A program made the position numbers and the translations under genes. This document shows, piece by piece, positions 26,589-44,889 of a stretch of 64,000 nt of DNA. Below the pieces are notes generated by a model. The model did no database searches. It saw only the letters and a list, made by a program, of their open reading frames with translations, and had not been told where the DNA came from. Each line of letters opens with the position of its first letter. Position 1 is the first letter of the stretch. The DNA is taken from positions 864,001 to 928,000 of the forward strand of contig OZ251459.1 in NCBI GenBank assembly GCA_965242525.1. The letters run 5' to 3'. Origin of the DNA: an uncultured Candidatus Binatia bacterium (GTDB lineage: Bacteria; Desulfobacterota; Binatia; UBA9968; JAJDTQ01).

Positions 26589-27677
26589 ATGCTGCTGATC
26601 GCCGATCCGGACGTGAAAGAGGTGCTCCGCGTGGAGGACATCATCGACCACATGGAGCGCGCCTTTGCGGAAGAGGCCAGGGGAATCGCGGTGAACAAGC
26701 CGCGCACCCGGTACAAGGTGCCGCCGGACAGGGATTCCGACGGCTACATGGCGAACATCATCCCCGGCGCGGTCCCGAGCTCGGGCGTGGCCGCGCTCCG
26801 GTACGACTCCATCGTGGTCAGGGAGCGCGTGGTGGAAGGGCTCAAGAGGATGGACTTCCCCTATCCCGCGCGGCGGAGTTGGGGTTTCGTGCTCCTGTTC
26901 GACCTGGAGAGCGCCGAGCCGCTGGCCATCATACACGACTTCAGCCTTTCGGCGATGCGGGTGGGGGCCACCACCGGGGTGGCCGTCCGGTCCCTGTCCC
27001 GGGAGGACAGCCGGGTGGTGGGGCTGTTCGGTTCGGGCAACGAAGCCGAGCAGAACCTTGCCGCCATCTGCGCCGTGCGCCCGGTGAGGGAGGTGCGCGT
27101 CTTCAGCGTCACCCGGGAGCACCGGGAAAGGTTCGCCCGGGAGATGACCGGCAAGCTCGACGTCCAGGTCCGCGCGGTGGACAACGCCAGGGCGGTGGTG
27201 GAAGGAGCGGACATCGTCATGTGCGCCACCAACGCGAGCCGTCCGGTCTTCGACGGGGACTGGCTCGCGCCCGGCCAGTTCGTGACCACCATCGTCAACA
27301 GCGACGGCGTGCACCGCCGCACCGAGGCCGACCCGACCACTTTCACGCGAGCCGACCTGATCGTCATCAACAACCGGGAGACCGCGCTCCACAACCAGCA
27401 GAGGGAGATGCTCGACCTGATCGACGAGGGAAGGATCGGCTGGGACCGGATCTGCGAGTTGGGGCAGGTCCTGATCGGCGGGAACCCGGGACGGAAGAGC
27501 GGCGAGGACATCATCTACTACAAGAGCAACACGGGCGTCGGGATACAGTTCGCGGCCGCGGGGGCCGTCATCTACGAGGCCTGCAAGAAGAAGGGGTTGG
27601 GCCGCGAGTTGCCGACCTCGTGGTTCGGCGCGGACGTGGGCGAATGGCTGGACAAGGGCTTCATGCCGTCTCCGTGA
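26589..27677 (+). CDS. ornithine cyclodeaminase/mu-crystallin family protein
   Basis: MRVGATTG, FGSGNEA, ADIVMCATN and GVGIQFAA motifs. Confidence 0.88.
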   Translation: MLLIADPDVKEVLRVEDIIDHMERAFAEEARGIAVNKPRTRYKVPPDRDSDGYMANIIPGAVPSSGVAALRYDSIVVRERVVEGLKRMDFPYPARRSWGFVLLFDLESAEPLAIIHDFSLSAMRVGATTGVAVRSLSREDSRVVGLFGSGNEAEQNLAAICAVRPVREVRVFSVTREHRERFAREMTGKLDVQVRAVDNARAVVEGADIVMCATNASRPVFDGDWLAPGQFVTTIVNSDGVHRRTEADPTTFTRADLIVINNRETALHNQQREMLDLIDEGRIGWDRICELGQVLIGGNPGRKSGEDIIYYKSNTGVGIQFAAAGAVIYEACKKKGLGRELPTSWFGADVGEWLDKGFMPSP

Positions 27678-28256: not shown

Positions 28257-29369
28257 TCAGAACAGGTCGGGGAAGCAGTCGTTCGGGAGCTCCCGTCCGA
28301 CGCCCCGGCTCAGCGCGGCCTCATAGACCGTCCCGGCGACCGCGGCGAACTGGAGTCCGAAACCGACGCTGTTGTCGAAGCAGGTGACCTGGGCGGGGTC
28401 GGTCCGGCCCGGGTGGCGTCCCGACAGGAGGTCCGGCAGGTCGGGGACGTTGCGCCAGTCCACCTCCACCGCGTCGCCGGGCGGATAACCCTTCTCGATG
28501 TCCAGCTTGACCTCCTCCGGGAACGGTTCCTCCCGGGAGCGGGAGATGAAGGTGTCGGGTCCCAGGTTGTCCCTGGAGTTGACCGCGAGGACGTCGAAAC
28601 CGCGGAAGGCGCCGGGGGCTATCTCGCAGTGGCGCACCGAGCACACGTACATGCCGGGTTCCAGCCAGTCTCTTTCGATCACCGGCGCAAGGGAGTTGGT
28701 CGCCAGGACCACGATCTCGCTTCCGCGGACGGCTTCCTCGGGAGCGTCCACCGCGGCCGCGTCCAGACTTCCATCGGTTTCGAGTTCCTGGACGAAGCGT
28801 TGCCTGTGCAAGGGGTTGGGGCTGAAAACTCGAACGGACTCGATGTTCCGCGCGGTTCGCAGGGCGTCCAGGTGGGCGCGGGCCATGAAGCCCGTCCCGA
28901 GCAGGCCCACGGTGGCGGATCGGGCGCCGGCCAAGTGTCTGGCGGCGAGGGCGGCCGCGGCTCCCACGCGGAGGTTACGGATGTGCCCTTCGCTGACCAG
29001 CGCGAGCAGGTCGCCGTCTTCCACCCCGAACAGGAGGATCAGGCCCCGGGTGACGCTGTGGGCCCTCCGGGTCCCGGGGGTTCGCTCCCGGCGAAAAACG
29101 CCGTCGCGCTCGCGCCAGAAGACCTTGTCCGTAAGGAACCGGATGGCGGCGTATTTCCGGGTGGCCGCCGACATGGTCTTCAGCATGTGGCAGCCCGGCA
29201 ACACGGCGCCGTCCGCGTCCACGTGGGAATCGGGGGTGAGGAGGTCGATCCTGGGACTGGTGACGGCGGCGCCGGCGCCGAGGTCCCGGTAGGCCTCGTC
29301 GAGGGCCGAGATGCACCGCCCCATGTCGAGGAGCCGTTGCACGTCCCGGTTGTCGAGAGCGAGGACCAT
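28257..29369 (-). CDS. ornithine cyclodeaminase/mu-crystallin family protein
   Basis: RVGAAAALA, LGTGFMAR and GFGLQFAA motifs. Confidence 0.86.
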   Translation of the reverse strand: MVLALDNRDVQRLLDMGRCISALDEAYRDLGAGAAVTSPRIDLLTPDSHVDADGAVLPGCHMLKTMSAATRKYAAIRFLTDKVFWRERDGVFRRERTPGTRRAHSVTRGLILLFGVEDGDLLALVSEGHIRNLRVGAAAALAARHLAGARSATVGLLGTGFMARAHLDALRTARNIESVRVFSPNPLHRQRFVQELETDGSLDAAAVDAPEEAVRGSEIVVLATNSLAPVIERDWLEPGMYVCSVRHCEIAPGAFRGFDVLAVNSRDNLGPDTFISRSREEPFPEEVKLDIEKGYPPGDAVEVDWRNVPDLPDLLSGRHPGRTDPAQVTCFDNSVGFGLQFAAVAGTVYEAALSRGVGRELPNDCFPDLF

Positions 29370-29408
29370 GGTTGCTTCCCCGGCAGGCCGGGGAGAAGGA
29401 ACGCGCCG

Positions 29409-31526
29409 ATGATCCATGAACGGTCCGGGGTTGTCAAGGGCGGGGATCGTCCGACGCATGGCGCCGCCGGAGAACGCCTCCCCCTGTGGTTGCTGCTGCT
29501 CGCGCTGTCCACGTTGTTCCTGTGCAGCATGGACGAGGGATACTTGTACCACCGTCCCGGCAGCCCGAACTGGAACATGGTGAACAACCTGGCGATTGCC
29601 GAGAACCTGTCCTCCGACCACCGTTTCCGGTTGTTCTACCGGCTGCGCCCGGGACCGGGCGGGGCCCCCGCCTACGAGATGTACAGCCGCTTCCCCGTGG
29701 GCGGTTACGCACTCATCAAACTCGCCATCCTTCCTTTCGGAAACGACCTGTGGGCCAAGGTCCTGGCCGCCCGCATGCTCATGTTGCTGTTGTTCAGCGC
29801 TGCTGCGGTCCTGGCCTTCCACTCCCTCGCACGGATCACCTCCCACCGCTGGGCGGCGCTGGCCGCCACCCTCGCGGCCTTCTCCTCCTACTACATGCTG
29901 TTGTACGGCAACGCGGTTTCGGTGGAGTACGGCGTGGACCTGTTCGCGGTCCTGCTGGCCTTCCACGGCATGGTGGTGTTCGTGCAGGAGGGACGGTTCC
30001 CCCAGTTGCTGGCCAAGACCGGCGTTGCGCTGCTGCTGGGGTGGCGCGTGTATGCGTTCCTGCTGCCGTTCCTCCTCCTGGGCCTGGCGGGCGAGGCGGT
30101 CCGGGCGTGGAAGGACGGAACCGCGATGTGGCCGCGTTTGCGCTCGGTGGGGGCGGCGGTGCTGCGCAGCCGCTACGCGGCCCTTGGCTTGGCCGCACTG
30201 CTGTTCGGCATGGCCGTCCTGAGCTTCAACTTCGCCAACGAGTACACCGCGTTCCGAGGCGAGACCCCGGTGAGCGAACTGCCTTCGTTCCGGTCCATGC
30301 TCAGGCGCACCGGACTGGACCCGGAGGTGGAGGCCTCCTTCGACCCCGGGTGGTGGCTGCGCTTCCTGCGAGAGCAGTTCTATCGTGTCCGGGTGGCGTC
30401 GGTCCCCCTGGTGGTGAGCGACTGGGGGGCGGGTTTGCGGGGGTTGTTTCCGTCGGTCCCCTTTTCGGAGACCGGCCTTTCGTGGCCGGAGTTGTCGGTT
30501 TACGTCGTGTCGTTGCTGCTGGCGGCGGTGGCCTCTTTGGTGGTGGTTCGGCTTGCGGGGCCGCTGTTGGTCCGGCGCCACCGCCTGCTGCTGGCCACCC
30601 TTGCCCTGTCGGGGTTCTGCTGGGCGCTGCCCATGCGCCATAACGTGGCGCACCTCGGCCACGCACACGAGGCCCTGTACTACGTGGGCGTGCCGCTGGT
30701 GTTGTATTCGCTGCTGCTGCTGTACGTGCGCCGGCGCTGGGGGCGTGGGCCGGTGGTCGGCCTTGCGGTTGCGGCGCTGCTCGCCTTCGTGGCCTCTGCC
30801 TTCCAGATGGATCAACGACGGCGGCTTGATCCCCGTGGGGTGGATCTCCAGCGGACGGCCATGGCCGAACTCGGGGCCATCCGCGAGACCACCCGGGGAA
30901 AGGTGGTCCTGCTCCTCGGGTCCGTCGAGCCGGAATGGTTCAGGCAGATCACGCACCCGCAGCACGGATGGAGCTACTATCTTGCCGGAAGCGTCCTGAC
31001 GCGATCGCTTGACCTGGAAGCCGCCGCCCGCGCCGCGGACTTCATCGTCGGCCACGACCGCCTGGAGACCGACGCCCTGCTCACACCCGGGAACCAGCAG
31101 GTGTTCCTGTATGATTCGGCGGGCGCTGGCGATCTGGTGGATCTCTACCGGGCTACGCACCAACGGGCGGTGTCCGGGGAACCTGCGGCGCGCTCCTGGT
31201 TCGACGTCCATCTCGGTGACGACGCGCTGGTCCACGTCAGGGATCCCTGCGTCTGGGAGGACGTGGAACACGGGTTCTTCGTGGAGGTGGTCCCGAAAGA
31301 CCTGAAGGACCTGCCCAGATGGCGCCTGCGGTACGGCTCCGGCAATCCTGCCCTCCGGTTCGGCAGGCTCCCCGTGCTGTTCGAAGGGAAGTGCATCTCC
31401 GTCCTTTCACTCCCGGATTATCCCGTCTCGGGCATCAGGACGGGACGGACCCTGCGCCGATACCGCGAGAAGTCGTATTACCACTGGGAAGTAGAGATAC
31501 CGGTGAGCCGGACCGGCTACCGTTGA
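29409..31526 (+). CDS. polytopic membrane protein, probable GT-C-fold glycosyltransferase with C-terminal soluble domain
   Basis: About 10-12 hydrophobic segments, YSRFP loop, adjacent GT2 gene. Confidence 0.6.
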   Translation: MIHERSGVVKGGDRPTHGAAGERLPLWLLLLALSTLFLCSMDEGYLYHRPGSPNWNMVNNLAIAENLSSDHRFRLFYRLRPGPGGAPAYEMYSRFPVGGYALIKLAILPFGNDLWAKVLAARMLMLLLFSAAAVLAFHSLARITSHRWAALAATLAAFSSYYMLLYGNAVSVEYGVDLFAVLLAFHGMVVFVQEGRFPQLLAKTGVALLLGWRVYAFLLPFLLLGLAGEAVRAWKDGTAMWPRLRSVGAAVLRSRYAALGLAALLFGMAVLSFNFANEYTAFRGETPVSELPSFRSMLRRTGLDPEVEASFDPGWWLRFLREQFYRVRVASVPLVVSDWGAGLRGLFPSVPFSETGLSWPELSVYVVSLLLAAVASLVVVRLAGPLLVRRHRLLLATLALSGFCWALPMRHNVAHLGHAHEALYYVGVPLVLYSLLLLYVRRRWGRGPVVGLAVAALLAFVASAFQMDQRRRLDPRGVDLQRTAMAELGAIRETTRGKVVLLLGSVEPEWFRQITHPQHGWSYYLAGSVLTRSLDLEAAARAADFIVGHDRLETDALLTPGNQQVFLYDSAGAGDLVDLYRATHQRAVSGEPAARSWFDVHLGDDALVHVRDPCVWEDVEHGFFVEVVPKDLKDLPRWRLRYGSGNPALRFGRLPVLFEGKCISVLSLPDYPVSGIRTGRTLRRYREKSYYHWEVEIPVSRTGYR

Positions 31527-31569
31527 CAGTGGGCGCCCCTGACGGTAGGAACGCAGCGGCGTACTTCAC

Positions 31570-32592
31570 ATGGACACCCACTCTTCGACATCACCGCCTC
31601 GGACATGCGACCGAACCTGCGCCCTCGTGTCCGTGGTCGTTCCGTGCTTCAACGAGGAAGCGGTCGTTTCCGAGGCCCATCGCCATCTGACGTCCGTCCT
31701 TGCGCAGGTTCCCGATAGCGATTTCGAGATCATCTACGTGGACGATGGCAGCGAGGACGACACATTGCGCCTTTTGCGAGGGCTCCAGCGCGACGACCAC
31801 CGGGTACGGGTGCTGGCCCTGTCGCGCAATTTCGGCCAACACGCGGCCTTCACGGCCGGTTTGCAGCACGCCCGCGGCAACGCCATCGTATCCATCGACG
31901 CCGACCTCCAGGACCCCCCCGAAGTCATCCTGGAAATGGTCGAACGCTGGCGCAAGGGGGTGGACGTCGCTTACGGCGCGCGCCTCGGACGCAAGGGCGA
32001 TACCGCCTTCAAACGCTGGTCGTCCCGCGTCTTCCATTACCTCATGGCGCGCATCTCCGACATCGCCATTCCCGTCAACGCCTGCGACTTCCGGCTCATG
32101 GACCGCAGGGTAGTGGACGTCTTGCTTGCCATGCCGGAGCACGACCGCTTCATGCGGGGTATGGTGGCCTGGGTCGGCTTCCGCCAGGAGCCGGTTCCCT
32201 TCCGGAACCAGGCTCGTCTCGCGGGCAAGACCGGGTGGCCATTGAGGAAGATGCTGAGCCTGGCCGTGGACGGCATCGTGTCGTTTTCCTTCATGCCCCT
32301 GCGCCTGGCGACCTGGGTCGGCTTCGTCATCTCCGGGCTGGCCCTGTCGGGTATCGTCTATGCCGTATTCGTCCGGCTCAGCACCAACGCCTGGGTCAGC
32401 GGCGTGGCCTCGGTCTTCATCGCCGTCCTGTTCCTCGGCGGCGTGCAGCTCATGCTCATGGGCGTGCTCGGGGAGTACCTGGGGCGCATCTATGGCGAAG
32501 TGAAGCGCCGCCCGCTCTATCTGGTGAAGGAAAAGCTGGGGTTCCCGGCCGCGGGCGAGCCGGGATCCAGGGAGGTGCGCGATGGCGCTTGA
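31570..32592 (+). CDS. GT2 polyprenol-phosphate glycosyltransferase (GtrB/YkcC-like)
   Basis: VPCFNEE, VDDGS, SRNFG and DADLQDPP motifs; two C-terminal TM helices. Confidence 0.92.
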   Translation: MDTHSSTSPPRTCDRTCALVSVVVPCFNEEAVVSEAHRHLTSVLAQVPDSDFEIIYVDDGSEDDTLRLLRGLQRDDHRVRVLALSRNFGQHAAFTAGLQHARGNAIVSIDADLQDPPEVILEMVERWRKGVDVAYGARLGRKGDTAFKRWSSRVFHYLMARISDIAIPVNACDFRLMDRRVVDVLLAMPEHDRFMRGMVAWVGFRQEPVPFRNQARLAGKTGWPLRKMLSLAVDGIVSFSFMPLRLATWVGFVISGLALSGIVYAVFVRLSTNAWVSGVASVFIAVLFLGGVQLMLMGVLGEYLGRIYGEVKRRPLYLVKEKLGFPAAGEPGSREVRDGA

Positions 32593-33148
32593 CCTGGCCG
32601 CAGGAAGCGGCGCGTTCGACCGTTACATCGAGGAGATACGGTCGCTTTGGAGTGGCGGCCGCGATGCGGCGTTGCCCTTCCGGGTGAAGTCGGCCATGGA
32701 GAGGATGCTCGCGTCCACGAGTCCCGGCGACCCCTGGATGGCGCGCCTCATCCGCGACGCGAGCCCGTCCAGGGAGCTCTACCGGGATCCGGACTACGGC
32801 TTCATCCAGATGGGGCACGTGCATCCCCGGGGGCACGGCAACCCGCCCCATGACCACGGGCCCTGCTGGGTGGTGTACGGCGCCTACCGGGGACTGACCG
32901 AGATCACCCTCTACGAGCGGACCGACGACGGCGGGAGCGCCGACCGGGCGGGGTTGCGCGCCGCCGAGGTCCATCGACTCGGACCCGGCGTCGTGTATCC
33001 CTACCTGGCGGGCCAGATCCATTCCACCCATGCCACGGAGACGCCCGCGGTGGTGTTCCGGTTCCTGAGCGCGGACCTCGACCGGATCCGGCGGCGCCGC
33101 TACGACGCGGAGACCGGCGCGGTAACGCTCGTCGAACCCCGGGCGTGA
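32582..33148 (+). CDS. cysteine-dioxygenase-like cupin
   Basis: PPHDHGPCWVVYG..YERTDDG..IHS, giving an HxH...H triad. Confidence 0.72.
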   Translation: MALDLAAGSGAFDRYIEEIRSLWSGGRDAALPFRVKSAMERMLASTSPGDPWMARLIRDASPSRELYRDPDYGFIQMGHVHPRGHGNPPHDHGPCWVVYGAYRGLTEITLYERTDDGGSADRAGLRAAEVHRLGPGVVYPYLAGQIHSTHATETPAVVFRFLSADLDRIRRRRYDAETGAVTLVEPRA

Positions 33149-33203
33149 AGGCGCTCGCATCCGCAAGGCGCGCGCCCGACCCCCGCCAGGCAAGGACCGT
33201 CCG

Positions 33204-34538
33204 GTGGCGGAGATGTACCCCAGCGCTCCGGAGAGCCTGAAGATCGAGACCGCGCCGCGGGAAGCCCTCCGGCGGATGCAGGGAGAGCGCTTGGCGGCGC
33301 TGGTCCGGCGCTGCTGGGATCGCGTCCCGTTCTACCGCGACCGCTGGAAGGCGGCCGGGCTGGAGCCCGGGGACATCCGCACGGCCGACGACGTGCGCAA
33401 GCTTCCGGTGGTCCGCAAGGGCGACTTCGAGGACAGCCTGCGGCGCCATCCTCCCTTTGGCGACTACCAGGGCGACTTCGCCGCGGTGCGAGTCCAGGCC
33501 AGCTCGGGCACGTCGGGCAACCCCAAGCCCTTCTTCTTCACGCGGAACGACTGGGAGGTCATCGCCCGGCTGTGGGGCCGGCGCTTCCACGCGCAGGGGG
33601 TCGGGGAAGGGGACATCCTCCAGGTGCTGTTCGCCTACACCCTCTTCATCGTCGGGTTCACCGCCTCCGAGGGGGCCATGCGGCTCGGGGCGCTGGTGGT
33701 GCCCACGGGCAGCGGCAGCGTCACCCCCAGCGAGAGGCAGGTGAAGATCGCCCGGGACTGGGGCGCCACCGTGCTCGCCGGGACCCCCTCCTACGTGCTC
33801 CACTTGGCGGACGTGGCCGAGGGGCAGGGGTTCGACCCGAGGAAGGACTTCCGCCTGCGGCGCACCATCCACACCTCCGAGACCATGACCGAGGCCGCCC
33901 GGCGCGCCATCGAGAGCCGCTGGGGCGTGACCGCGTACGACAACTTCGGCAGCGTGGAGACCGGCGCCCCCTCGTTCGAGTGCGAGGAGCGGAACGGATA
34001 CCACGTGAACGAGGACGCCTACATCTTCGAGGTGCTGGACCCGGCCACCCATGAGCCCGCGCCGCGGGGGAGCGATGGCGTGCTGGTGGTGACCTGCCTC
34101 TTCAAGGAGGCGGCGCCGGTGGTCCGGTACAACATCGAGGACGTGTGCGCGTTCCTGGACGACCCCTGCCCGTGCGGGCGGACGTTCCGGCGCATCTCCG
34201 GGCTCAGGGGCCGCCTGAGCGACATGGTGAAGGTCAGCGGCATCCCGTTCTACCCGACCTCGGTGGAGACCGCGCTGGAGCGCCTGCCGCAACTCACCCG
34301 GGAGTACAGGGTCACGGTGGACCGGGCGGGACGGCAGGACCGGTTGACGGTGGAGGTGGAGATGCGGCCCGGCTGCGGCCCGGCCGCGGAGGTCCGGCAA
34401 CGGTTGGAAAGGGAACTGAAAGTTGCTACCAATCTGACCATGGACGCGGTGCTCCTGGCGCCGGGCGAGTTGGCCGGGTCCCTGGGCGTCGAGAACCGCA
34501 TCAAGGTGAAACGCATCCGGGACAGGCGGGAGTCCTGA
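33204..34538 (+). CDS. phenylacetate--CoA ligase (PaaK)-family AMP-dependent ligase
   Basis: SSGTSGNPK, GTPSY, FGSVETG, RYNIED, CPCGR and GRLSDMVKVSG motifs. Confidence 0.9.
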   Translation: MAEMYPSAPESLKIETAPREALRRMQGERLAALVRRCWDRVPFYRDRWKAAGLEPGDIRTADDVRKLPVVRKGDFEDSLRRHPPFGDYQGDFAAVRVQASSGTSGNPKPFFFTRNDWEVIARLWGRRFHAQGVGEGDILQVLFAYTLFIVGFTASEGAMRLGALVVPTGSGSVTPSERQVKIARDWGATVLAGTPSYVLHLADVAEGQGFDPRKDFRLRRTIHTSETMTEAARRAIESRWGVTAYDNFGSVETGAPSFECEERNGYHVNEDAYIFEVLDPATHEPAPRGSDGVLVVTCLFKEAAPVVRYNIEDVCAFLDDPCPCGRTFRRISGLRGRLSDMVKVSGIPFYPTSVETALERLPQLTREYRVTVDRAGRQDRLTVEVEMRPGCGPAAEVRQRLERELKVATNLTMDAVLLAPGELAGSLGVENRIKVKRIRDRRES

Positions 34539-34623
34539 GCGCCCGGCGGGGCTCGTGGCCGGAAACCGGCGCCGCCGCGTGCTCCAGGCCCGTCGGCGCT
34601 CCCCGAACCGCTCTTTCGACACC

Positions 34624-36057
34624 ATGACTTTCGACGACAACCGCAGCTTCATGGACGCGCTCCGACGGTCCGGCGACTTGGTGGAGGTGGAACGGGAGGT
34701 GAGCTGGGACCTGGAGCTCGGCGCCGTCAGCCGGTTGGCCTGCGAGAAGGACGGCCCCGCGGTGTGGTTCAAGCGCGTCTCGGACTACGTGGGCGAGGTC
34801 TCGGTGTTCGTCAACCCGGTGGCCACTTGGCGGCGCATCGCCATCGCCCTGGGGCTCGCCCCCACCGCCTCGGTGCGGGAGATCTACGAAGCCTACGAGA
34901 AGGGGGAGACCACCCCGGTGGAGCCGGTGGAGGTCCAACGGGCGCCGTGCAAGGAGGTGGTGCGCAAGGGCTCCGAGGCCAACCTGTTCGACCTGCCCAC
35001 GCCCATGCTCCACGAGGGCGACGGCGGCCGTTACCTGGGCACCTGGGACCTGGTGGTCTCCCGGGACGCGGACAGCGGGTGGGTCAACTGGGGCATGTAC
35101 CGGTTCATGGTCTATGACGCCCGCCACCTGACCGGCTTCCCGAGGCCCACGAGCCACCTGGGCAAGGTCTTCCAGGAGCACTACGTGGCCAAGGGAAAGC
35201 CCATGCCCCTGGCCATCGCCATCGGCGCGGACCCCCTGTCCCATTTCGCGGCCGCGGCCACCTACTTCCTGGGGGGCGACGAGGCGAGCCTCGCCGGCGG
35301 CCTGCGCGGCAGGCCGGTGGAGCTGGTCCGCTGCGAGACCAGCGACCTGCTCGTGCCGGCCCACTCCGAGATCGTCATCGAAGGAGAGTTGCTGCCCGAC
35401 CGGGTAGGGCTGGAAGGCCCCTACGGCGAGTACCCGGGGTACCGGACCGGGGAGATGGGGAACGGCGTGCTGTTCCGCGCCGCGGCCATCACCCACCGGC
35501 GGGACCCCGTGCTCACCGTGGACGCCACCGGCTACAAGGACGACAGCTCCACGGTCACGGCGCTTTCCGGCGCCTTGGCCATCAAGCGGCGGCTGGAGCG
35601 CCACGGAGTGCCGGTGCGGGACGTGTACGTCCCGCCCGAGGGCGCCGTGCACCTGGCGGTCATCGGGGTGGACTACGGCGGCAAGGAGGTGGCGGACAAG
35701 GTGCTCTCGGTGCTCACCTCGCGCCGGGCGCTGCTCTCGAAGCTCTTCCTGGTGGACACGGACACGGACGTGTTCGACATGGGCAAGGTCCTGCACGCCT
35801 TCTCCACCAAGTGCCACCCGGCCAACGGCATCCACGTGGTCCGTTACGAAGGGCGCGCCAATACCTTGACGCCCTGCTACAGCCAGGCGGAGCGGGCGGC
35901 GCAGAAGGGGGCCACGGTGCTGTACGACTGCACCTGGCCAGGCGAATGGTCGCGGGAGTGGGAGGTGCCGGTGAAGGCGACCCTGGATTCCATCTTCTCG
36001 AAGGAAGTGCGGGAGAAGGTGCTCGGGAACTGGAGCGACTATGGCTTCGAGCGGTGA
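34624..36057 (+). CDS. UbiD-family prFMN (de)carboxylase resembling the PpcA/AbcA clade
   Basis: HEGDGGRY, NWGMYR and EGPYGEY motifs. C-terminal STKCHP..GIH..YDCTWP..W..KVLGNWSDYGF resembles, from memory, the phenylphosphate carboxylase alpha subunit. Confidence 0.85.
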   Translation: MTFDDNRSFMDALRRSGDLVEVEREVSWDLELGAVSRLACEKDGPAVWFKRVSDYVGEVSVFVNPVATWRRIAIALGLAPTASVREIYEAYEKGETTPVEPVEVQRAPCKEVVRKGSEANLFDLPTPMLHEGDGGRYLGTWDLVVSRDADSGWVNWGMYRFMVYDARHLTGFPRPTSHLGKVFQEHYVAKGKPMPLAIAIGADPLSHFAAAATYFLGGDEASLAGGLRGRPVELVRCETSDLLVPAHSEIVIEGELLPDRVGLEGPYGEYPGYRTGEMGNGVLFRAAAITHRRDPVLTVDATGYKDDSSTVTALSGALAIKRRLERHGVPVRDVYVPPEGAVHLAVIGVDYGGKEVADKVLSVLTSRRALLSKLFLVDTDTDVFDMGKVLHAFSTKCHPANGIHVVRYEGRANTLTPCYSQAERAAQKGATVLYDCTWPGEWSREWEVPVKATLDSIFSKEVREKVLGNWSDYGFER

Positions 36058-36352
36058 GCCCCGGGCATGGGACACTTTCGTGCGCCGGCCCGGGGACCTC
36101 AGGACCGGGGTCGAGGCGCCGCTGGTGCTGAGGGACCTGGGGCCGGGCCGCGGCAAGTACGGACTGAGGCACGTGGTGGGCGTGGTCCACCCGGGCCGCG
36201 GCCCGGGCGACCGCCTCTCGGTCCGCACCGTGGTGGGGGTGGCCCTGCCCGAGGCCTATACGGTGGAGATCGTCCGGGAACTGCCCCAGGAGATCGCCGG
36301 CGCGCCCTACCGGGACTTCTACGGCGCGCTGCAGCGGGCCGCGGGACCGTAG
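36041..36352 (+). CDS. phenylphosphate carboxylase gamma-subunit-like (PpcD/AbcD-like) small protein
   Basis: WDTFV..P.DL..G.E..L.LR.L.PG..KY...V..DRLSVR...G pattern resembles, from memory, the ~10 kDa Ppc gamma subunit. GGAG RBS; overlaps the UbiD stop. Confidence 0.65.
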   Translation: MASSGEPRAWDTFVRRPGDLRTGVEAPLVLRDLGPGRGKYGLRHVVGVVHPGRGPGDRLSVRTVVGVALPEAYTVEIVRELPQEIAGAPYRDFYGALQRAAGP

Positions 36353-36368
36353 GCGGCCGGGAGGTTCC

Positions 36369-37070
36369 ATGGGCTTCGGCGAGGAGTTGATCGCGGTTCG
36401 GGACGCCAGGCACAGCCGGGACCACCCGTTCTTCGAGAAGTGGGCGCGGGGGGAGCTCACCCGGGAGCAGACGGCCATCTACTGCACCCAGCACTACCAC
36501 TACGTGAGCGACTACCTGGACTGGATGGCCTACGAGGCTTCCCAGGTGCCCCACCGGGACGCCAAGGCGTTCCTGTACGAGAACCTGGGCGACGAGGAGA
36601 ACCCCGACGACCGGCACCTGGACATGCTGAAGGACTACGTGGACGCCAGCGGCCTGCCCCGGGAGTGCGTGGACGACTACCCGGTGCTGCCGAGCACCGA
36701 GGGGCTCCAGAACTGGGGCTGGCGGGTGGTCTACCAGCGGCGTTGGCAGGCCGCGTTGGCGGCCATGTTCGTGGGGCTGGAGTCCCAGTTCCTGGGCATC
36801 TGCCAGAAGGTGGCGCCGGCCCTCCGGGAGCACTACGGCTACCCGGCCGGGGCCAGGGAGATCCGCTTCTTCGAGGAGCACATCGAGGCGGACGCGGTGC
36901 ACGGGTCCAGGGGACTCGCGCTGGTGGAGAAGTACTGCGACACCCCGGAGCTCCGGCAACAGGCCGTGGACTCGGTGCGCGAGGCCACGGTCCGGCGCTG
37001 GCGCTACATGAACGGCATCTACTGGTTCGCCCTCCACGGCCGGGACGACGACACCCCCGCGGACGCCTGA
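36369..37070 (+). CDS. CADD/PqqC/TenA-like heme-oxygenase-like diiron protein
   Basis: HPFF..W..GELT, ENLGDEE..H, LESQ and FFEEHIEADAVH ligand pattern. Confidence 0.85.
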   Translation: MGFGEELIAVRDARHSRDHPFFEKWARGELTREQTAIYCTQHYHYVSDYLDWMAYEASQVPHRDAKAFLYENLGDEENPDDRHLDMLKDYVDASGLPRECVDDYPVLPSTEGLQNWGWRVVYQRRWQAALAAMFVGLESQFLGICQKVAPALREHYGYPAGAREIRFFEEHIEADAVHGSRGLALVEKYCDTPELRQQAVDSVREATVRRWRYMNGIYWFALHGRDDDTPADA

Positions 37071-37100
37071 TCCCGCCTGGCGCCGCCCACGAGGTCCACA

Positions 37101-38180
37101 ATGGCCGACGATGACGTCCTGGTCCTGACCAACGAAGACATGGAGGGTCTCCTCCACATGGGGGAGATCGTCGAGGCGGTGGAGACGGCGTACCGGGAGC
37201 TGGGACGCAAGATCGCCGAGGGGATTCCCCGGCGGCGGCTGCACCTGCCGCTGGAGGGCCGGGAGCGCGCCTGGTACTGGCTGAACGTCATCCCGGGGGC
37301 GGTGCCGGCCTTCGACACCGCCGCGGTCCGGGTGGATTCCTCGCAGATCCGCTTCCGCAACCGGGACGGCGGGAGCCGCATGGAGTTCCCCGGGGACTTC
37401 GCCGGCTTCGTGCTGCTGTTCAGCATCCGGGACCGCGTCCTCAAGGGCATCGTCCACGACCATTACCTGTCGGCGTTGCGGGTGGGGGCCACCAGCGGGG
37501 CGGCGGCCAAGTACCTGGCCCGTGAGGACGCCTCGGTGCTGGGCGTCTTCGGCAGCGGAACCCAGGCCCACGGGCAGGTGGCCGCCCTGTGCGCGGTCCG
37601 CAAGATCCGGGAGGTCAAGGTCTTTTCCCTGCGCCCGGAGAACCGCCAGCGCTTCGCCGGGGAAGCGGCCCGGCGCTACGGCGTGAAGGCCAGGGCGGTG
37701 CGGCATCCGCGGGAGGTGGTGGAGGGATCGGACATCGTGGTCACCGCCACCAACTCCGGCGACCCGGTGTTCGACGGCGACTGGCTGGAGCCCGGCACCC
37801 ACCTCATCTCCATGATCGGCCCCGACCGATTCGACAAGCGCAGGGAGCTGGACGACACGGCCATCGAAAACTGCGACCTCATCGTGGTGAACTCGAAGGA
37901 GCAGGTGGAGATCGACGAGCAACCGGAACTCATCTCGCCGCTGCGCAAGGGCATCATCGGTTGGGAACACCTCCACGAGCTCGGCGACCTGGTCAACGGC
38001 GTCATTGCCGGACGCACCACCGGCTCGGAGATCACCCATCACAACAACAACTGCGGCATGGGGGTCCAGTTCGCCGCCATCGGCCACTTGGTGCTGGAGG
38101 AGGCCCGGAAGCGGAAGCTCGGGACCCGGCTGCCCGCGGACCTGTTCATGACCCGGCGCACCGACGTGTCGTCCCCCTGA
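37101..38180 (+). CDS. ornithine cyclodeaminase/mu-crystallin family protein
   Basis: LRVGATSG, FGSGTQA, SDIVVTATNS and GMGVQFAA motifs. Confidence 0.88.
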   Translation: MADDDVLVLTNEDMEGLLHMGEIVEAVETAYRELGRKIAEGIPRRRLHLPLEGRERAWYWLNVIPGAVPAFDTAAVRVDSSQIRFRNRDGGSRMEFPGDFAGFVLLFSIRDRVLKGIVHDHYLSALRVGATSGAAAKYLAREDASVLGVFGSGTQAHGQVAALCAVRKIREVKVFSLRPENRQRFAGEAARRYGVKARAVRHPREVVEGSDIVVTATNSGDPVFDGDWLEPGTHLISMIGPDRFDKRRELDDTAIENCDLIVVNSKEQVEIDEQPELISPLRKGIIGWEHLHELGDLVNGVIAGRTTGSEITHHNNNCGMGVQFAAIGHLVLEEARKRKLGTRLPADLFMTRRTDVSSP

Positions 38181-38198
38181 AAGGAGTCAGGAGTTCCC

Positions 38199-38825
38199 AT
38201 GGCCATCACCCTGAGCGTGGACCCGCAACACCTGAAGGGGAGGCACGTGGACCGGGCGGTGGAGGTGCTGCAGCGGGCGGGCGTCATCGTCTATCCCACG
38301 GACACCATCTACGGCCTGGGCTGCGACGCGACCAGCAAGGCCGCGGTGGAGCGCATCCGCCGCATCAAGGGCCGCGACGCGGACAAGCCCATGTCGTTCG
38401 TGTGCTCGGACCTGGTCCAGGTCAGCCGCTACGGCCACGTGTCGAACTTCGTGCACCGCATCCTGAAACGCTTCCTGCCGGGACCCTACACCTTCGTGCT
38501 GACGGCCACCCGGGAAACCCCCCGGGTGCTCCAGTCGAAGCAGAAGACCGTGGGCGTGCGGATACCGGACCACCCGGTGCCCCTCGCCCTGGTGGAGCGG
38601 CTCGGCAACCCGGTGGTGAGCACCAGCGCCAACGAGAGCAACGAGGAGGTGGTCACCAACCCCGCGGACCTGGAACGCATCTTCGGGCATCGGGTGGACC
38701 TGATCATGGAATGCGGGACCCTTCCGGTGCAGGCCTCCAGCGTGGTCTCGCTGGTGGACGACACCGTCGAGATCCTGCGCGAAGGGCAGGGGGACCTGAG
38801 CTACTTCAAGAGCCGGACGGCGTGA
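38199..38825 (+). CDS. L-threonylcarbamoyladenylate synthase family protein (YrdC/Sua5/YciO)
   Basis: YPTDTIYGLGC, KGR...KP, LPGPYT and STSAN motifs. Confidence 0.9.
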   Translation: MAITLSVDPQHLKGRHVDRAVEVLQRAGVIVYPTDTIYGLGCDATSKAAVERIRRIKGRDADKPMSFVCSDLVQVSRYGHVSNFVHRILKRFLPGPYTFVLTATRETPRVLQSKQKTVGVRIPDHPVPLALVERLGNPVVSTSANESNEEVVTNPADLERIFGHRVDLIMECGTLPVQASSVVSLVDDTVEILREGQGDLSYFKSRTA

Positions 38826-38888
38826 AGCGCCCCGCGCGTGCATGCCGCGGCGGTCGAGTGAGCGGGTAATCCGGGGTGAAAGACGGGC

Positions 38889-40193
38889 ATGACCTCTTCC
38901 CCTCAGGGTGGCCGGCGCCGCCGTGCGTTGCGCCTCATCGGCCGGAACCCGCTTCTGTTGGTGGCGGGCGTCGCGCTGGCGGCGTTGGCCGGAGAGGCAT
39001 ACTTGCGGCTGACCGTGCCGTTCATGATATCGCGGGTCCCCAATGAATTCGTTCCGAACGTAGGCTATGTCAGGACCCCGAACACGGAGATACGCTTTAC
39101 CAACCGGCTCGACTTCTGGAACGTCTCCCGCACCAACAGCTTGGGCTTCCTCGACCGGGAACCCCCGAGCCCCGAACGCGCCGCAGCAACCTGTCACGTC
39201 TCGATCATCGGCGACTCCTTCGTGGAGGCGTTGCAAATCCCCATCGACGACAAGTCCCATGTCCGGCTCGAAGGGCTCGCCGCCGACCGGTTGCCCCACC
39301 TGGACATCACGACTTCGGCCTTTGGGTTGAGTGGTATCGGCCAAGTCCAGCAACTGCCGTTCTACGACGAATATGCCCGGCGGCTCCATCCCAAACTGCT
39401 CGTGCTGGTCTTCGTTGCCAATGACCTCCCTGACAACACGCCGGTCATCGGGGGGTTGGGAAGATCGGGCCGGAAAAAGAAGCTCACGGTGAGAAGGCGC
39501 TCGGACGGGGCATTGGAGTTGGCATGGGTCCTTCCCCGGGAAGGGAGTCCCCGGACCCCGGCGTCGTGGGCTGCCCGCGCCATGGAGAAGGCGGTGGAGC
39601 GTTCGTGGCTTGCCCTCTGGTTGCGCGCCAAGAAGAATGCCCTGTTTCCTCGACCGGACCACCGGGATCGCCGGTTCGTCGAGAACGTGGAGGCTCTGAG
39701 ACGGCAGCCCGGCCATGCCGCGCTGCTCGAAGGATGGCGGCCCACCACTCGGCGCGACATGGTTCGAGTCTTCGCTCGAAGGGACCTGCCTCCCTTTTTC
39801 GAGGACGCCCTGGGATACACCCGTTTCGCGCTGGAACAGTTCCGGCAGCGTGCCGACCGCGACGGCGCCAAGCTGGTCATCCTGGCGTCACACACGTTGA
39901 AGACCCGCGGAGCCCCCATGTTCGAGCGATTGAGCGAAATTGCCGCCGCCCTGGGCATTCCCGTCATCGACCAGGCCGACTACATCCTGCGCCAGGGCGC
40001 CGAGCTCGCGGACGCCCAATGGCCCCACGACGGCCACTGGAACCCGGCCGGCCACCAATGGGCCGCAGAGGCCCTGCTCGAATATATCGAGCAACGTCCT
40101 GAAGTCTGCAACGGGCCCACCGGCGCCGGCGCCCTGCACGTACTGCCGCGGTGGTCGAGTGAGCGGATAATCCGGGGTGAAAGACGGATATGA
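38889..40193 (+). CDS. SGNH-hydrolase-like (AlgJ/AlgX-type) membrane-anchored protein, copy 1
   Basis: N-terminal TM, TNSLGF, GDSF, ND and DGHWN motifs. Confidence 0.75.
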   Translation: MTSSPQGGRRRRALRLIGRNPLLLVAGVALAALAGEAYLRLTVPFMISRVPNEFVPNVGYVRTPNTEIRFTNRLDFWNVSRTNSLGFLDREPPSPERAAATCHVSIIGDSFVEALQIPIDDKSHVRLEGLAADRLPHLDITTSAFGLSGIGQVQQLPFYDEYARRLHPKLLVLVFVANDLPDNTPVIGGLGRSGRKKKLTVRRRSDGALELAWVLPREGSPRTPASWAARAMEKAVERSWLALWLRAKKNALFPRPDHRDRRFVENVEALRRQPGHAALLEGWRPTTRRDMVRVFARRDLPPFFEDALGYTRFALEQFRQRADRDGAKLVILASHTLKTRGAPMFERLSEIAAALGIPVIDQADYILRQGAELADAQWPHDGHWNPAGHQWAAEALLEYIEQRPEVCNGPTGAGALHVLPRWSSERIIRGERRI

Positions 40194-41401
40194 TTGCTGC
40201 CCCCCACAGTAGTGCGGCCCGGCGGACCCCTCGTGTGCTGCGCCTGCTCGGCCGGAGCGCGTTTCTGCTGGTCGCGGGCGTCGCGCTGGCGGCGTTGGCC
40301 GGAGAAGCCTGGTTCCGCCTGACCGCGCCGTTCATGGTATCGACACTCCCCGATGAATTCGTCCCGAACGTAGGCTATCTCAGGCCCCCGGACACGGAGA
40401 TACGCTATACCAACCGGCTCGACTTCTGGAACGTCTCCCGCACCAACAGCCTGGGCTTCCTCGACCGGGAACCCCCGAGCCCCGAACGCGCCGCGGCAAC
40501 CTGCCACGTCTCCGTCATCGGCGACTCCTTCGTGGAGGCGCGAGAGGTCCCCATCGACCACAAGCTCCACGTTCGCCTCGAAGAACTCGCCGCCGACCGG
40601 TTGCCCCGCCTGGACGTCACGACTTCGGCCTTCGGGATAGGAAATACCGGCCAAGTCCGCCAACTGCCGTTCTACGACGAATATGCCCGGCGCCTCCGTC
40701 CCAAACTGCTCGTGCTGGTCTTCGTGAACAATGATTTCATCAACAACGCGCCGCTGATCGTGGGGACGAGAAGGTCGGGCCGGAAAAAAAACCTCACGGT
40801 GAGAAGGCGCTCGGACGGGACACTGGAGTTGGCATGGTTCCTTCCCCGGGAATGGAGTCCCTGGCCCCCGGCGTCGTGGGCTGCCCGCGCCATGGAGAAG
40901 GCGGTGGAGCTTTCGTGGCTTGCCCTCTGGTTGCGCGCCAAGAGGAATGCCCTGTCTCCTCCTGACGAGGAACAGTGGCTCATCAGGATGATGGAGTCCC
41001 TGGCGCGACAGCCCGACTCCTTGCGGTTCTGGTCCGCCCCCGTTTTCGAGGACGGCCTGCAATACACCGCCTTCGCGCTGGAGCAGTTCAAGGAGCGCGC
41101 CGACCGTGACGGCGCCAACCTGGTCATCCTGACGACGCATACGCTGAAGACCCGCGGAGCCCCCATGTTCGAGCGATTGAGCGAAATGGCCGCCGCCCTG
41201 GGCATTCCCGTCATCGACCAGGCCGACTACATCCTCCGCCGGGGCGCCAGGCTCACGGACGCCCAATGGCCCCACGACGGCCACTGGAACCCCGCCGGCC
41301 ACCAATGGGCCGCAGAGGCCCTGCTCGAATATATCGAGCAACGCCCGGAAGTCTGCGACAGGCCCACCGGCGCCGGCGCCCTGCTCGAACCGGCCACTTG
41401 A
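40190..41401 (+). CDS. SGNH-hydrolase-like protein, copy 2 (tandem paralog)
   Basis: Long identical stretches shared with 38889-40193; same motifs. Confidence 0.75.
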   Translation: MIAAPHSSAARRTPRVLRLLGRSAFLLVAGVALAALAGEAWFRLTAPFMVSTLPDEFVPNVGYLRPPDTEIRYTNRLDFWNVSRTNSLGFLDREPPSPERAAATCHVSVIGDSFVEAREVPIDHKLHVRLEELAADRLPRLDVTTSAFGIGNTGQVRQLPFYDEYARRLRPKLLVLVFVNNDFINNAPLIVGTRRSGRKKNLTVRRRSDGTLELAWFLPREWSPWPPASWAARAMEKAVELSWLALWLRAKRNALSPPDEEQWLIRMMESLARQPDSLRFWSAPVFEDGLQYTAFALEQFKERADRDGANLVILTTHTLKTRGAPMFERLSEMAAALGIPVIDQADYILRRGARLTDAQWPHDGHWNPAGHQWAAEALLEYIEQRPEVCDRPTGAGALLEPAT

Positions 41402-41490
41402 CGCCGAGCGGCACGAGCGGACGACCAAGCGGGGCCTTCGTCTCTGTATTGCCTATGTGACGGCCAAAGAACAGGTGAATCCTTCAGCCT

Positions 41491-41519
41491 TTGACCAGGC
41501 TTCGGCAAGAGGATATGGT
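41491..41519 (+). promoter_or_regulatory. putative sigma70 promoter of the methyltransferase
   Basis: TTGACC-17 nt-TATGGT. Confidence 0.45.
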
Positions 41520-41577
41520 GTCTGAAACTGCCGTAACCCCACTGACCCTACAGCAAATCGTGAAGAGATGACCCGCC

Positions 41578-43767
41578 ATGACCCTCCCTTTGCCACTCTA
41601 CGTCACCGAAGACAGCGCAACGTCGGTCCGAATCCGGAACAAGGGCGAGCGAGCCGCCATTGAAGAGGACGGGTTTCCGTTCGAGGAATTTTCGGACGTT
41701 GCCGAATTGGAGAGTTGGCGCAAGGAGATCAACCGCCCTCTCTACCACATGCACAAATGGTGGGCGCAACGCCTGGGATCGGTCTTCCGGGCCATTGTAA
41801 TCGGTACCCTGACGCCGGCCGGGACCGATGTGAAGGTCAGTTTCCATCGACCGGTGCGGTTTCCCGGTACGGTGGTCTTCGACCCTTTCATGGGTAGTGG
41901 CACGACGGTCGGCGAGGCTCTGAAACTGGGTTGTCGGGCCGTCGGACGCGACATCAACCCGGTAGCCCATTTCATCGTCAAGAACGCCTTGGCGCTCCAT
42001 CCCCGCACCCAGGCGATCCAGGAGTTCAAGGCCATCGAGCGCGACGTGGCGGCAAGGATACGACACTTCTACGAGGCGCGTTTGCCCGGGAGAGAGAAAG
42101 CGCAATGCCTGTACTACTTCTGGGTCAAGGTGCTGGACTGTCCGAACTGCAAAGAGGCAGTGGATCTGTTCCATTCCTACGTTTTTGCACGTCACGCCGA
42201 CCCGCGACGATACCCCATCGCGCAAGCCGTCTGTCCGTCCTGTGGCGCACTGAACCGGACGCGCCACGACGCGGAGGAGGTGACGTGCGGCGCCTGCCGC
42301 TACGTCCATGATCCCAACAGGGCGCCGGCCAACGGGGCGAAGGTTACGTGCCCGCACTGTCGGCATGTCTTTCCGGCGGCCAAGGTGGCCCGCGAAGCGG
42401 GACGGCCGCCTGAACATCGGCTGTACGCAAAGCTGGTTCTCACCGCTTCCGGCGAAAAGCGCTACCTGCCGGCCGATGACTTCGATTTGGCGCGATACCA
42501 GGAAGCCGTTGCCGCATTGAAGGGGAGGGAGAGCGCTCTTCCCGAAGGGGAATTGAAGCCCGGGTACAACACGAACCAAGCCATCAATTACGGTTATCGA
42601 CGCTGGCGTGAGATGTTCAACGAACGCCAGCTCCTGTGCCTGGACATATTGGCCGACCGGATTCGGTCGATAAACGGCAAGCCGTTGCGAGACCTGTTTG
42701 TCTGTCTGTTCTCGGGCGTGCTGGAATTCAACAACATGTTTGCGTCCTACAAGGGCGAGGGAACGGGCGCAGTCAGGCACATGTTCTCGCACCACGTCCT
42801 GAAACCCGAACGTACCCCCCTGGAGGCCAATCCCTGGGGCACACCCCGGAGCTCGGGCGCGTTCTCCACCTTGTTCGGGAGCCGGGTCCTGCGCGCCATC
42901 GACTATTGTGAAGATCCCTTCGAGATCGCTGTGGTCAGGAAGAACGGCAAGCCCTCCACGAGAAAGGTTTTCGGCCTGTCCGAGCCCATTGGATATCCGA
43001 TAACCGAGAGCTTCGACGCCTTTGACGCCGGAGGACGAGTCTATCTGTCGTGTGGCGATTCAGGCAACACGGATCTCTCGGAAGGCTCCGTCGATGCCGT
43101 GATCACAGACCCGCCTTTCTTCGACAACGTGCACTACTCCCAACTCGCGGACTTCTTCCACGTCTGGCAGCAGTACATCCTGGAGCCTCCGGAACGGCGT
43201 TCGACAACCACTCGGTCCGAGCGGGAAGTCCAACAGACCGAGGCCGGCGAGTTCACGACCCGACTGCGCGCAATCTGGAGGGAATGCCGCCGCGTCCTGA
43301 AGCCCGGCGGGCTCCTCGTGTTCACCTATCACCATTCCCGGCCCGAGGGCTGGAGCAGCGTCTTCGACGCGGTGACGGAAGCGGGCATGGCGATCGTGGC
43401 GGCCCATCCCATCAAGGCGGAAATGTCCGTCGCCATGCCGAAAAGCCAGGCCCGGGAACCCATCGACCTCGACATCATCTTGGTTTGCCGCAAGCGGGAG
43501 GACGTCCTGATTCGTTTGCAGGACCGTGAAGACGCTTGGGCGCAGGCGGTCAAGGTTGCCGACGGGCAGATCAGCCGGTTGCGTCGAGTTGGCCGCAAGT
43601 TGAGCCGTAACGACATCCGGGTCGTGGTCATGGCCCAGATCATTCGTTTCCTGTCCACCTGCGACGATCATCGAACAGCCCGCGCATTCCTGGAAGACCG
43701 GACCGCCAAGGTCGATGACATGATCGACTCTTTCGACGTCAGCGAGACGGGCGAACATGGACGATGA
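41578..43767 (+). CDS. DUF1156-type adenine DNA methyltransferase with zinc ribbons
   Basis: HKWWAQR, DPFMGSGTT (motif I), four CxxC pairs, TDPPFFDN (motif IV), RVLKPGG..FTYHH. Confidence 0.88.
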   Translation: MTLPLPLYVTEDSATSVRIRNKGERAAIEEDGFPFEEFSDVAELESWRKEINRPLYHMHKWWAQRLGSVFRAIVIGTLTPAGTDVKVSFHRPVRFPGTVVFDPFMGSGTTVGEALKLGCRAVGRDINPVAHFIVKNALALHPRTQAIQEFKAIERDVAARIRHFYEARLPGREKAQCLYYFWVKVLDCPNCKEAVDLFHSYVFARHADPRRYPIAQAVCPSCGALNRTRHDAEEVTCGACRYVHDPNRAPANGAKVTCPHCRHVFPAAKVAREAGRPPEHRLYAKLVLTASGEKRYLPADDFDLARYQEAVAALKGRESALPEGELKPGYNTNQAINYGYRRWREMFNERQLLCLDILADRIRSINGKPLRDLFVCLFSGVLEFNNMFASYKGEGTGAVRHMFSHHVLKPERTPLEANPWGTPRSSGAFSTLFGSRVLRAIDYCEDPFEIAVVRKNGKPSTRKVFGLSEPIGYPITESFDAFDAGGRVYLSCGDSGNTDLSEGSVDAVITDPPFFDNVHYSQLADFFHVWQQYILEPPERRSTTTRSEREVQQTEAGEFTTRLRAIWRECRRVLKPGGLLVFTYHHSRPEGWSSVFDAVTEAGMAIVAAHPIKAEMSVAMPKSQAREPIDLDIILVCRKREDVLIRLQDREDAWAQAVKVADGQISRLRRVGRKLSRNDIRVVVMAQIIRFLSTCDDHRTARAFLEDRTAKVDDMIDSFDVSETGEHGR

Positions 43768-44653: not shown

Positions 44654-44889
44654 GGCGCGTCCGCTTCGTGGTCGAAGAGGTCCTTCGATGGAACGTCGAG
44701 CGCGCGAGCGATTTTCTCGACGTTGATGATGCTGATGTTGCGTTCGCCCCGTTCCACTCCGCCGACATAGGTACGATCAAGGCCGGACTTGAACGCAAGT
44801 TGCTCTTGGGAGAGGTTTCCGCGCTTTCGCAGGAGCCGCACCCTCTGTCCGAAAGCGACCCTGATGTCGTCAGCGACCTTTGCGTCCAT
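44650..44889 (-). CDS. XRE-family HTH controller (C) protein
   Basis: SQEQLAFKSGLDRTYVGGVERGERNISI is typical of RM C proteins; C-box lies upstream. Confidence 0.85.
   Translation of the reverse strand: MDAKVADDIRVAFGQRVRLLRKRGNLSQEQLAFKSGLDRTYVGGVERGERNISIINVEKIARALDVPSKDLFDHEADAP

Follow-up and report, generated by a model that had tools for sequence, protein, structure and literature searches.

The window analysed here, a 64,000-nucleotide stretch of the genome of an uncultured Candidatus Binatia bacterium (C1:864001-928000; genome 4.23 Mb, 98.96% complete), carries at 33204-36352 a three-gene cassette for a PaaK-type acid-CoA ligase, a UbiD-family (de)carboxylase and a small protein resembling the gamma subunit of phenylphosphate carboxylase (Ppc). 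The cassette is real, conserved, widespread and uncharacterised, and it joins an alpha/gamma UbiD enzyme of the Ppc/Abc kind to a CoA ligase. It very probably encodes a two-subunit UbiD enzyme coupled to the ligase. More tentatively, and giving the statement as a whole slightly less than an even chance, we propose that this two-subunit UbiD-ligase cassette runs a carboxylation followed by CoA trapping on a (hetero)aromatic substrate; here we infer both the carboxylation direction and the (hetero)aromatic ring. A search of the literature returned no description of this clade, and none that joins Binatia with UbiD.

The initial annotation, made from the DNA itself, had called a PaaK-family ligase, a UbiD with an intact EGPxGE motif and a translationally coupled 103-amino-acid gene, all of which are present on the + strand:

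33204-34538, + strand: PaaK-type adenylate-forming acid-CoA ligase, akin to phenylacetate-CoA ligase, 444 amino acids (Pfam and NCBIfam matches)
34624-36057, + strand: PpcA-type large subunit of a UbiD-family (de)carboxylase dependent on prenylated flavin mononucleotide (prFMN), 477 amino acids (the open reading frame opens at GTG 34555)
36041-36352, + strand: small subunit resembling Ppc gamma, 103 amino acids (17-nt overlap with the end of the UbiD gene)

The G+C content at third codon positions (GC3) of these three reading frames is 0.92-0.95. The ATG at 34624, which gives a protein of 477 residues, is the likely start of the UbiD gene because its homologues are 476-477 amino acids long.

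The Pfam families PF20695, PF01977 and PF20696, which represent the N-terminal, Rift-related and C-terminal UbiD domains, all match the large subunit above their cut-offs, as does the generic UbiD model TIGR00148 (263 bits, cut-off 244.85). The top NCBIfam model is phenyl_P_alpha (TIGR02723) at 377.3 bits, below its cut-off of 564.6; genuine PpcA proteins reach 1034-1183 bits on the same model. Lower ranks are taken by BagN/FevL (278 bits), the generic UbiD model and VdcC (237 bits). The EGPYGE motif occupies residues 264-269. Residues R160/E264/E269 align with R173/E277/E282 of Fdc1, which we take to be catalytic, and N155/H178/E220 align with Fdc1 N168/H191/E233, presumably the residues that bind Mn/K-prFMN phosphate. 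All six are invariant in 13 of 13 UbiD family members.

For comparison, genuine phenol clusters were located in Zoogloeaceae genomes (L101-L104), and the window UbiD shares 40% identity with their PpcA over 478 residues. The likeness of its C-terminus to the alpha subunit of Thauera phenylphosphate carboxylase had been pointed out at the outset; the resemblance stands, but it covers the full length of the protein rather than the C-terminus only. A quick maximum-likelihood tree of 63 UbiD sequences agrees with this placement. It comprises 25 members of the family; from the phenol clusters, four sequences each of PpcA, of PpcB and of the third UbiD; two secondary UbiDs of related loci; and 24 of the genome's 25 remaining paralogues. 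The paralogue at C1:1113064 stands outside the set, as do AbcA, Fdc1, HudA and PhdA. All 25 family members group in a single clade (SH-aLRT 98), with PpcA as its sister (SH-aLRT 100), and none of the 24 same-genome paralogues falls inside it. Best model, identity and tree position thus agree with the PpcA-type assignment first made, and the contrary outcome named with it, a UbiD that groups with quinone-biosynthesis enzymes or other single decarboxylases, was not seen, there being no grouping with the paralogues in this tree. The PpcB clade of the tree contains no neighbour of the window locus.

Relatives of solved structure are more remote. Fdc1 (241 bits), HudA/PA0254 (232 bits) and the PhdA-type 6da6 (229 bits) are about equally distant from the window UbiD; 6h6x and 6h6v, which we take to be HmfF, score about 150 bits, and phthaloyl-CoA decarboxylase, at 52 bits, is remote. 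The window UbiD is like Fdc1, HudA/PA0254 and 6da6 in its fold family, its catalytic Arg/Glu/Glu and its metal-binding residues. It is unlike them in that the match amounts to only ~230-240 bits, the PDB entries list no gamma-type partner, and its own sequence is nearer to PpcA.

The small gene begins with an ATG 17 nt ahead of the UbiD stop codon, preceded by GGAG at 36032-36035. Its product has 54 database relatives at 59-96% identity, all of them unnamed or labelled "hypothetical". When a profile of 23 members was run against 1.84 billion representative proteins in a full HMMER scan, only 188 clusters matched at E ≤ 0.001, and the family is therefore small. The window protein matches the Ppc gamma model TIGR02725 at E 4.5e-4 (20 bits, cut-off 135.55). 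It has no PF09662 (Phenyl_P_gamma) match in a Pfam scan at E 0.01; this family matches 21 of the 23 members. An hhalign comparison with four genuine PpcC proteins returned 99.0% probability (E 8.1e-18, 78 columns), and the window protein is 33% identical to PpcC over 70 amino acids. On sequence grounds, the small protein is a Ppc gamma homologue belonging to a diverged subfamily. The initial annotation had suggested such a likeness and named a lack of similarity as its refutation; TIGR02725, PF09662 in the relatives and hhalign instead agree on the likeness. Relative to PpcC, proteins of the family are extended at the C-terminus by about 20 residues, including an invariant Pro-Tyr-x-Asp motif absent from PpcC. 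No other gamma-like gene occurs in the whole genome. Ppc gamma is not known from any enzymes other than carboxylases, as reportedly described by Schühle and Fuchs (2004).

A search by name with the PpcC profile gave only PpcC orthologues among the best 120 of 345 matches. One matching protein, P0359 (85 amino acids, PF09662), is termed the "delta subunit" in one Azoarcus sp. CIB record and gamma in others; a clash of gamma and delta naming of this sort may explain the letter D of AbcD.

Several lines of evidence bear on whether the two proteins bind each other. P0132 (580 amino acids) is a natural fusion of a UbiD of this family at the N-terminus with a gamma-like C-terminus; it represents eight member sequences, on one contig. 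A structural model of the UbiD and small-protein complex scored 0.88, as against 0.00 for the best of three controls; 116 of 157 solved complexes attain this mark, compared with 2 of 215 mismatched pairs, counts that are rough as custom alignments were used. Between the three runs at least 99% of contacts are shared, and the partner pLDDT is at least 88. On the UbiD side the predicted interface takes in residues 122-136, 163-168 and 256-285, including E264 of the catalytic loop. On the gamma side it takes in G36-Y40, G66 and P89-D92, the most conserved residues of the protein, among them five of its seven invariant residues (G36, K39, Y40, G66 and Y90). The small protein alone is modelled by AlphaFold as five strands and a C-terminal helix (pLDDT 88.7). 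Foldseek found no match to this model in the PDB at E ≤ 0.001 (best E 0.35), and a sequence profile search of the PDB reached a best E of 0.74, with no solved relative. Because gamma is without a solved relative in sequence or fold, a known complex remembered by the model is an unlikely source of the score. UbiD and gamma thus probably form a complex, and the two-subunit enzyme of the initial annotation gains support from both the fusion and the predicted binding. The position of the modelled interface suggests that gamma helps shape or close the UbiD active site.

The ligase matches Pfam AMP-binding and AMP-binding_C_2. Its best NCBIfam models are those of PaaK, NF041878 (311 bits, cut-off 700) and TIGR02155 (283 bits, cut-off 646), and PaaK is also its best solved relative (260 bits). 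By these scores it is PaaK-like and not a PaaK equivalog. It is present in a single copy in the genome, and it is 45-52% identical to the ligases that adjoin UbiD-gamma pairs in Proteobacteria and Acidobacteriota. Identity to the PaaK-like ligases of the genuine phenol clusters is 34-38%. In those clusters the ligase gene lies a few genes past PpcC (L101:11813-13114 and L104:10944-12368), and across the cassette ligases identity to it ranges from 34 to 41%. A precedent for a PaaK-like ligase beside UbiD genes is 2-phenanthroate:CoA ligase, the gene of which, by the published description, adjoins a UbiD-type carboxylase cluster (PMC11497795).

The breadth of the cassette was assessed by a scan for UbiD relatives in one genome per species, which gave 235 stretches; the best 80 were kept, and all locus counts refer to these. 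They span at least eight phyla, with hosts among the Binatia, Myxococcota, Methylomirabilia, Actinomycetota, Alpha- and Betaproteobacteria, Acidobacteriota, Planctomycetota, Chloroflexota and Desulfobacterales. In 79 of the 80 loci the small gene comes directly after UbiD; the remaining locus is on a contig that ends 2 nt past the UbiD match. A CoA ligase gene lies within 4 kb in 65 loci, 38 with a PaaK-type and 27 with a classic AMP-binding type; the two are never found together, and thus two ligase subfamilies have been recruited to the same pair. The classic ligases are ~510-556 amino acids long and have aryl-acid activators as their best solved relatives (salicylate-AMP ligase, DHB-AMP ligase and 4-chlorobenzoate CoA ligase). 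In 11 of the 15 loci without a ligase, less than 4 kb of sequence is available on at least one side. The ligase, named in the initial annotation as part of the module, is thereby borne out as a conserved third partner across phyla.

The ligase gene stands ahead of the pair in Binatia and after the UbiD-gamma pair in non-Binatia loci. The Binatia order would fit a scheme in which the ligase acts first, making an aryl-dicarboxyl-CoA that UbiD then decarboxylates as a thioester, in the manner of phthaloyl-CoA or isophthaloyl-CoA decarboxylase; ligase and UbiD are paired in this way in anaerobic isophthalate degradation. The reverse order outside Binatia argues against such a scheme, as do the distance of the window UbiD from phthaloyl-CoA decarboxylase (52 bits, compared with 241 bits for Fdc1) and the PDB entries of that enzyme, which list no gamma subunit. 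We consider it improbable.

Of the characterised systems, Ppc of Thauera/Aromatoleum is the closest. The alpha subunit is sister to PpcA, gamma is a homologue of the 10-kDa subunit, and the order of the alpha and small genes, one directly after the other, is that of ppcA and ppcC. Clusters L101-L104 contain PpsA, PpsB, PpcB, PpcD, PpcA, PpcC and a third UbiD, with the PaaK-like ligase further downstream; all four Ppc subunits are above their cut-offs save two gamma copies that fall just under, and UbiX was scanned and confirmed only in L104. Unlike Ppc, both window subunits score below the equivalog cut-offs, and the ligase adjoins the pair here but lies several genes off there. The genome also lacks a PpcB partner, the delta phosphatase and phenylphosphate synthase. 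No second UbiD that could serve as Ppc beta occurs in the window, the model for Ppc delta (the KdsC-like phosphatase, TIGR02726) has no match in the whole genome, and the best genome match to phenylphosphate synthase (NF006152) reaches 73.6 bits (cut-off 723) and is limited to the C-terminal mobile domain. The absence of Ppc beta, delta and the synthase, first remarked for the window, therefore extends to the whole genome. Because the genome is without Ppc delta and phenylphosphate synthase, the enzyme is not a phenylphosphate carboxylase; with kinase and phosphatase partners both missing, the reaction is not expected to pass through a phosphorylated intermediate.

The reported absence of ubiX holds for the window, but not for the genome, in which a single copy was located ~490 kb away (G000:C1:406759-407352). 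The genome encodes 26 UbiD-domain genes for this one UbiX, an unusually large expansion of UbiD served by a single flavin prenyltransferase.

The initial annotation had described the cassette as an AbcA/AbcD/BzlA-like module. Published descriptions of the Abc genes, which are assigned to a putative anaerobic benzene carboxylase of Peptococcaceae enrichment cultures, bear out the architecture as far as they extend: one PpcA-like UbiD, a small subunit, an adjacent acid-CoA ligase and no synthase (PMC13101534, PMC5852087). Any kinship to AbcA and AbcD themselves would rest on these papers, one of which, in its Table 1, enters AbcD under the gene name ppcC (PMC5852087). The cassette is unlike Abc in that ubiX is not adjacent, the ligase is of PaaK type whereas BzlA is by name a benzoate-CoA ligase, and the cassette occurs in Binatia, Proteobacteria, Acidobacteriota, Actinomycetota and further hosts, a good many of them not strict anaerobes. 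A likeness also exists to the carboxylase clusters for polycyclic aromatic hydrocarbons (naphthalene and phenanthrene), in which a PaaK-like ligase for a ring-bound carboxyl adjoins UbiD-type genes (PMC11497795). As described in the same source, those clusters have several UbiD-like genes and occur in sulfate reducers, which sets them apart from the single UbiD and small subunit of the cassette (PMC11497795). The xanthine-carboxylate decarboxylase of Cupriavidus LA-1 was considered and set aside as a model, as it has neither ligase nor small subunit in the published description (PMC12391406).

In the function we propose, UbiD (alpha) and the 103-amino-acid gamma would assemble into a heteromeric prFMN-dependent (de)carboxylase that draws its cofactor from the single UbiX of the genome. 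In the predicted complex, gamma lies against the flavin-binding domain, next to the loop with the catalytic Glu264. CO2 would be added directly to a (hetero)aromatic compound without prior phosphorylation. The ligase would act on the same carboxylic acid that UbiD makes or uses, and in spending ATP to trap this acid as a CoA thioester it would pull the unfavourable equilibrium forward. Such a logic has been proposed for AbcA/AbcD/BzlA. Carboxylation is preferred on two grounds: the only characterised relatives that possess the small subunit work as carboxylases, and UbiD carboxylases with a PaaK-like ligase next to them have been described (PMC11497795).

A number of observations weigh against carboxylation followed by CoA trapping. 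Four loci (L012, L022, L079 and L081) have no nearby ligase despite at least 4 kb of sequence on both sides. Carboxylate-type transporters adjoin the cassette in others, namely TctC (L055 and L065), TRAP (L051) and MFS (L061 and L076), and an IclR regulator is found near it in 14 of the 80 loci; these fit an imported acid at least as well as a neutral arene. Many hosts are typical aerobes or facultative organisms (Burkholderiales, Rhodoferax and Acidimicrobiia), in which oxygenases would be the usual route. UbiD reactions are reversible, and ambient CO2 favours decarboxylation. In this genome, the B subunit of class I benzoyl-CoA reductase has no match (class II was not searched), a further point of difference from Abc, and BoxB-like matches are weak (177 bits, cut-off 499). 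Because the class I reductase is unmatched and the BoxB-like matches are weak, benzene or phenol as the substrate is unsupported.

The transporters and IclR regulators that flank the cassette in several phyla, together with the many aerobic hosts, would suit the opposite direction, after the logic of HmfF/HmfD, in which an imported (hetero)aromatic dicarboxylate loses one carboxyl and the other is activated as a CoA thioester for breakdown. The UbiD equilibrium in general favours decarboxylation. The genome is also rich in molybdenum hydroxylases, enzymes that act on heteroaryl-CoA esters in furoate catabolism (Hmf pathway, Cupriavidus basilensis). However, the nearest characterised relative, PpcA, is a carboxylase, and the gamma subunit is known from Ppc only and probably from AbcD. 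The HmfF-type structures (6h6x and 6h6v) are distant at ~150 bits, compared with 241 bits for Fdc1, and the kinds of transporter (TctC, TRAP, MFS and ABC) differ by locus, none being common to all. Decarboxylation ahead of the ligase is in our view rather unlikely.

Carboxylation followed by CoA trapping can be put in a bolder form, in which the cassette would be a minimal direct (hetero)arene carboxylase with no phosphorylation step, common among bacteria of soil and groundwater and those associated with sponges, oxygen-respiring lineages among them, with gamma in an active-site lid beside the Glu loop and CoA ligation as the sole ATP input. We hold this form to be rather doubtful. If it is true, the Proteobacterial and Binatia versions could offer a workable model of the benzene carboxylase, an enzyme never yet reconstituted. 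The proposed direct enzymatic carboxylation of unactivated rings (benzene, naphthalene and phenanthrene) has its basis mostly in gene induction and slow-growing enrichments, and a compact cassette that is also present in easily handled lineages offers many candidates for heterologous expression. The 10-kDa gamma subunit gains a testable role, that of binding beside the catalytic loop. Annotations such as "phenylphosphate carboxylase alpha" and "hypothetical protein" hide what is a distinct enzyme family.

The genes on either side of the cassette are as follows:

31570-32592, + strand: GT2 glycosyltransferase
32582-33148, + strand: 188-amino-acid protein that belongs to no recognised family and precedes the ligase (Pfam and NCBIfam both negative)
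36369-37070, + strand: CADD/PqqC-like, haem-oxygenase-like di-iron protein, 233 amino acids (Pfam Haem_oxygenas_2; TIGR04305 at 87 bits, cut-off 200)
37101-38180, + strand: ornithine cyclodeaminase/mu-crystallin (OCD) family protein, 359 amino acids (Pfam OCD_Mu_crystall)
38199-38825, + strand: Sua5/YciO/YrdC-domain protein

These genes and those of the cassette are closely spaced, with GC3 of 0.85-0.97 in a window of ~69% G+C, and a scan of 31000-39500 returned no promoter-like and no terminator-like site. The gene for the 188-amino-acid protein is found upstream of the ligase in about 20 Binatia loci, at 74-81% identity. The di-iron gene, which in the window starts 16 nt past the gamma gene, is the gene immediately after gamma in 8 of the 80 loci; these are all close Binatia relatives, and no locus from another phylum shows this order. 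OCD-family genes adjoin the cassette, upstream or downstream, in many Binatia loci (such as L038, L039, L041, L052 and L082). The di-iron, OCD and Sua5/YciO genes were weighed as parts of the cassette and rejected, being confined to Binatia, where 1-6 kb of unrelated sequence with other genes often intervenes.

The di-iron and OCD genes, which in the window and in close relatives continue the strand of the cassette at spacings of 16-30 nt, could alternatively belong to a biosynthetic module of the bagremycin/ferroverdin kind, in which UbiD would make a vinyl or decarboxylated aromatic block, the PaaK-like enzyme would condense it, and the di-iron oxidase and OCD protein would tailor an amino-acid-derived product. 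BagN/FevL is the second-best NCBIfam model for UbiD (278 bits), and BagE/FevW is among the matches of the ligase (154 bits). Set against cut-offs of 1000 and 800, all these scores fall well short; moreover, the di-iron and OCD genes are absent outside Binatia and within it are often set off by insertions of 1-6 kb, and the non-Binatia context consists of regulators and transporters typical of catabolism. A biosynthetic role is accordingly very improbable. Acyl-CoA dehydrogenase, found near the cassette in six loci by clustering, was discarded as a clue to the substrate as its matches are generic.

Paralogues of the OCD/mu-crystallin protein number 3 in the window (18200-19195, - strand; 26589-27677, + strand; and 37101-38180, + strand) and 16 in the genome. 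Large subunits of molybdenum hydroxylases of the xanthine-dehydrogenase family are likewise numerous, about 28-30 in the genome (31 match rows, some split), with one in the window at 9592-12012 on the - strand. On the model for 4-hydroxybenzoyl-CoA reductase alpha (cut-off 994.55), the hydroxylase at C1:2726888-2729119 reaches 869 bits. Hydroxylase genes of this family lie within 12 kb of 8 of the 26 UbiD genes. Together, the molybdenum hydroxylases and UbiDs suggest a specialist in N-heterocycle or aromatic breakdown. The hydroxylase of the window (8738-12478, - strand) was rejected as part of the module, as it lies 21 kb away and reaches 395 bits against the same cut-off of 994.55.

Among public sequencing data, 22 runs are listed for 33204-36352, none of them on record as RNA. 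Nine runs from three studies contain at least half of the sampled words from this region, and four of the nine are labelled sponge metagenome.

Elsewhere in the window, G+C falls to 0.62-0.64 at 40000-46000, compared with ~0.69 in the remainder. This segment may be an acquired island, and it includes a gene for a DNA methylase-domain protein of 729 amino acids (41578-43767). Upstream of the cassette, at 28413-31526 on the + strand, an open reading frame of 1037 amino acids has a coding-like GC3 of 0.81 and no Pfam or NCBIfam match, and a relative at 79% identity is found upstream in locus L011.

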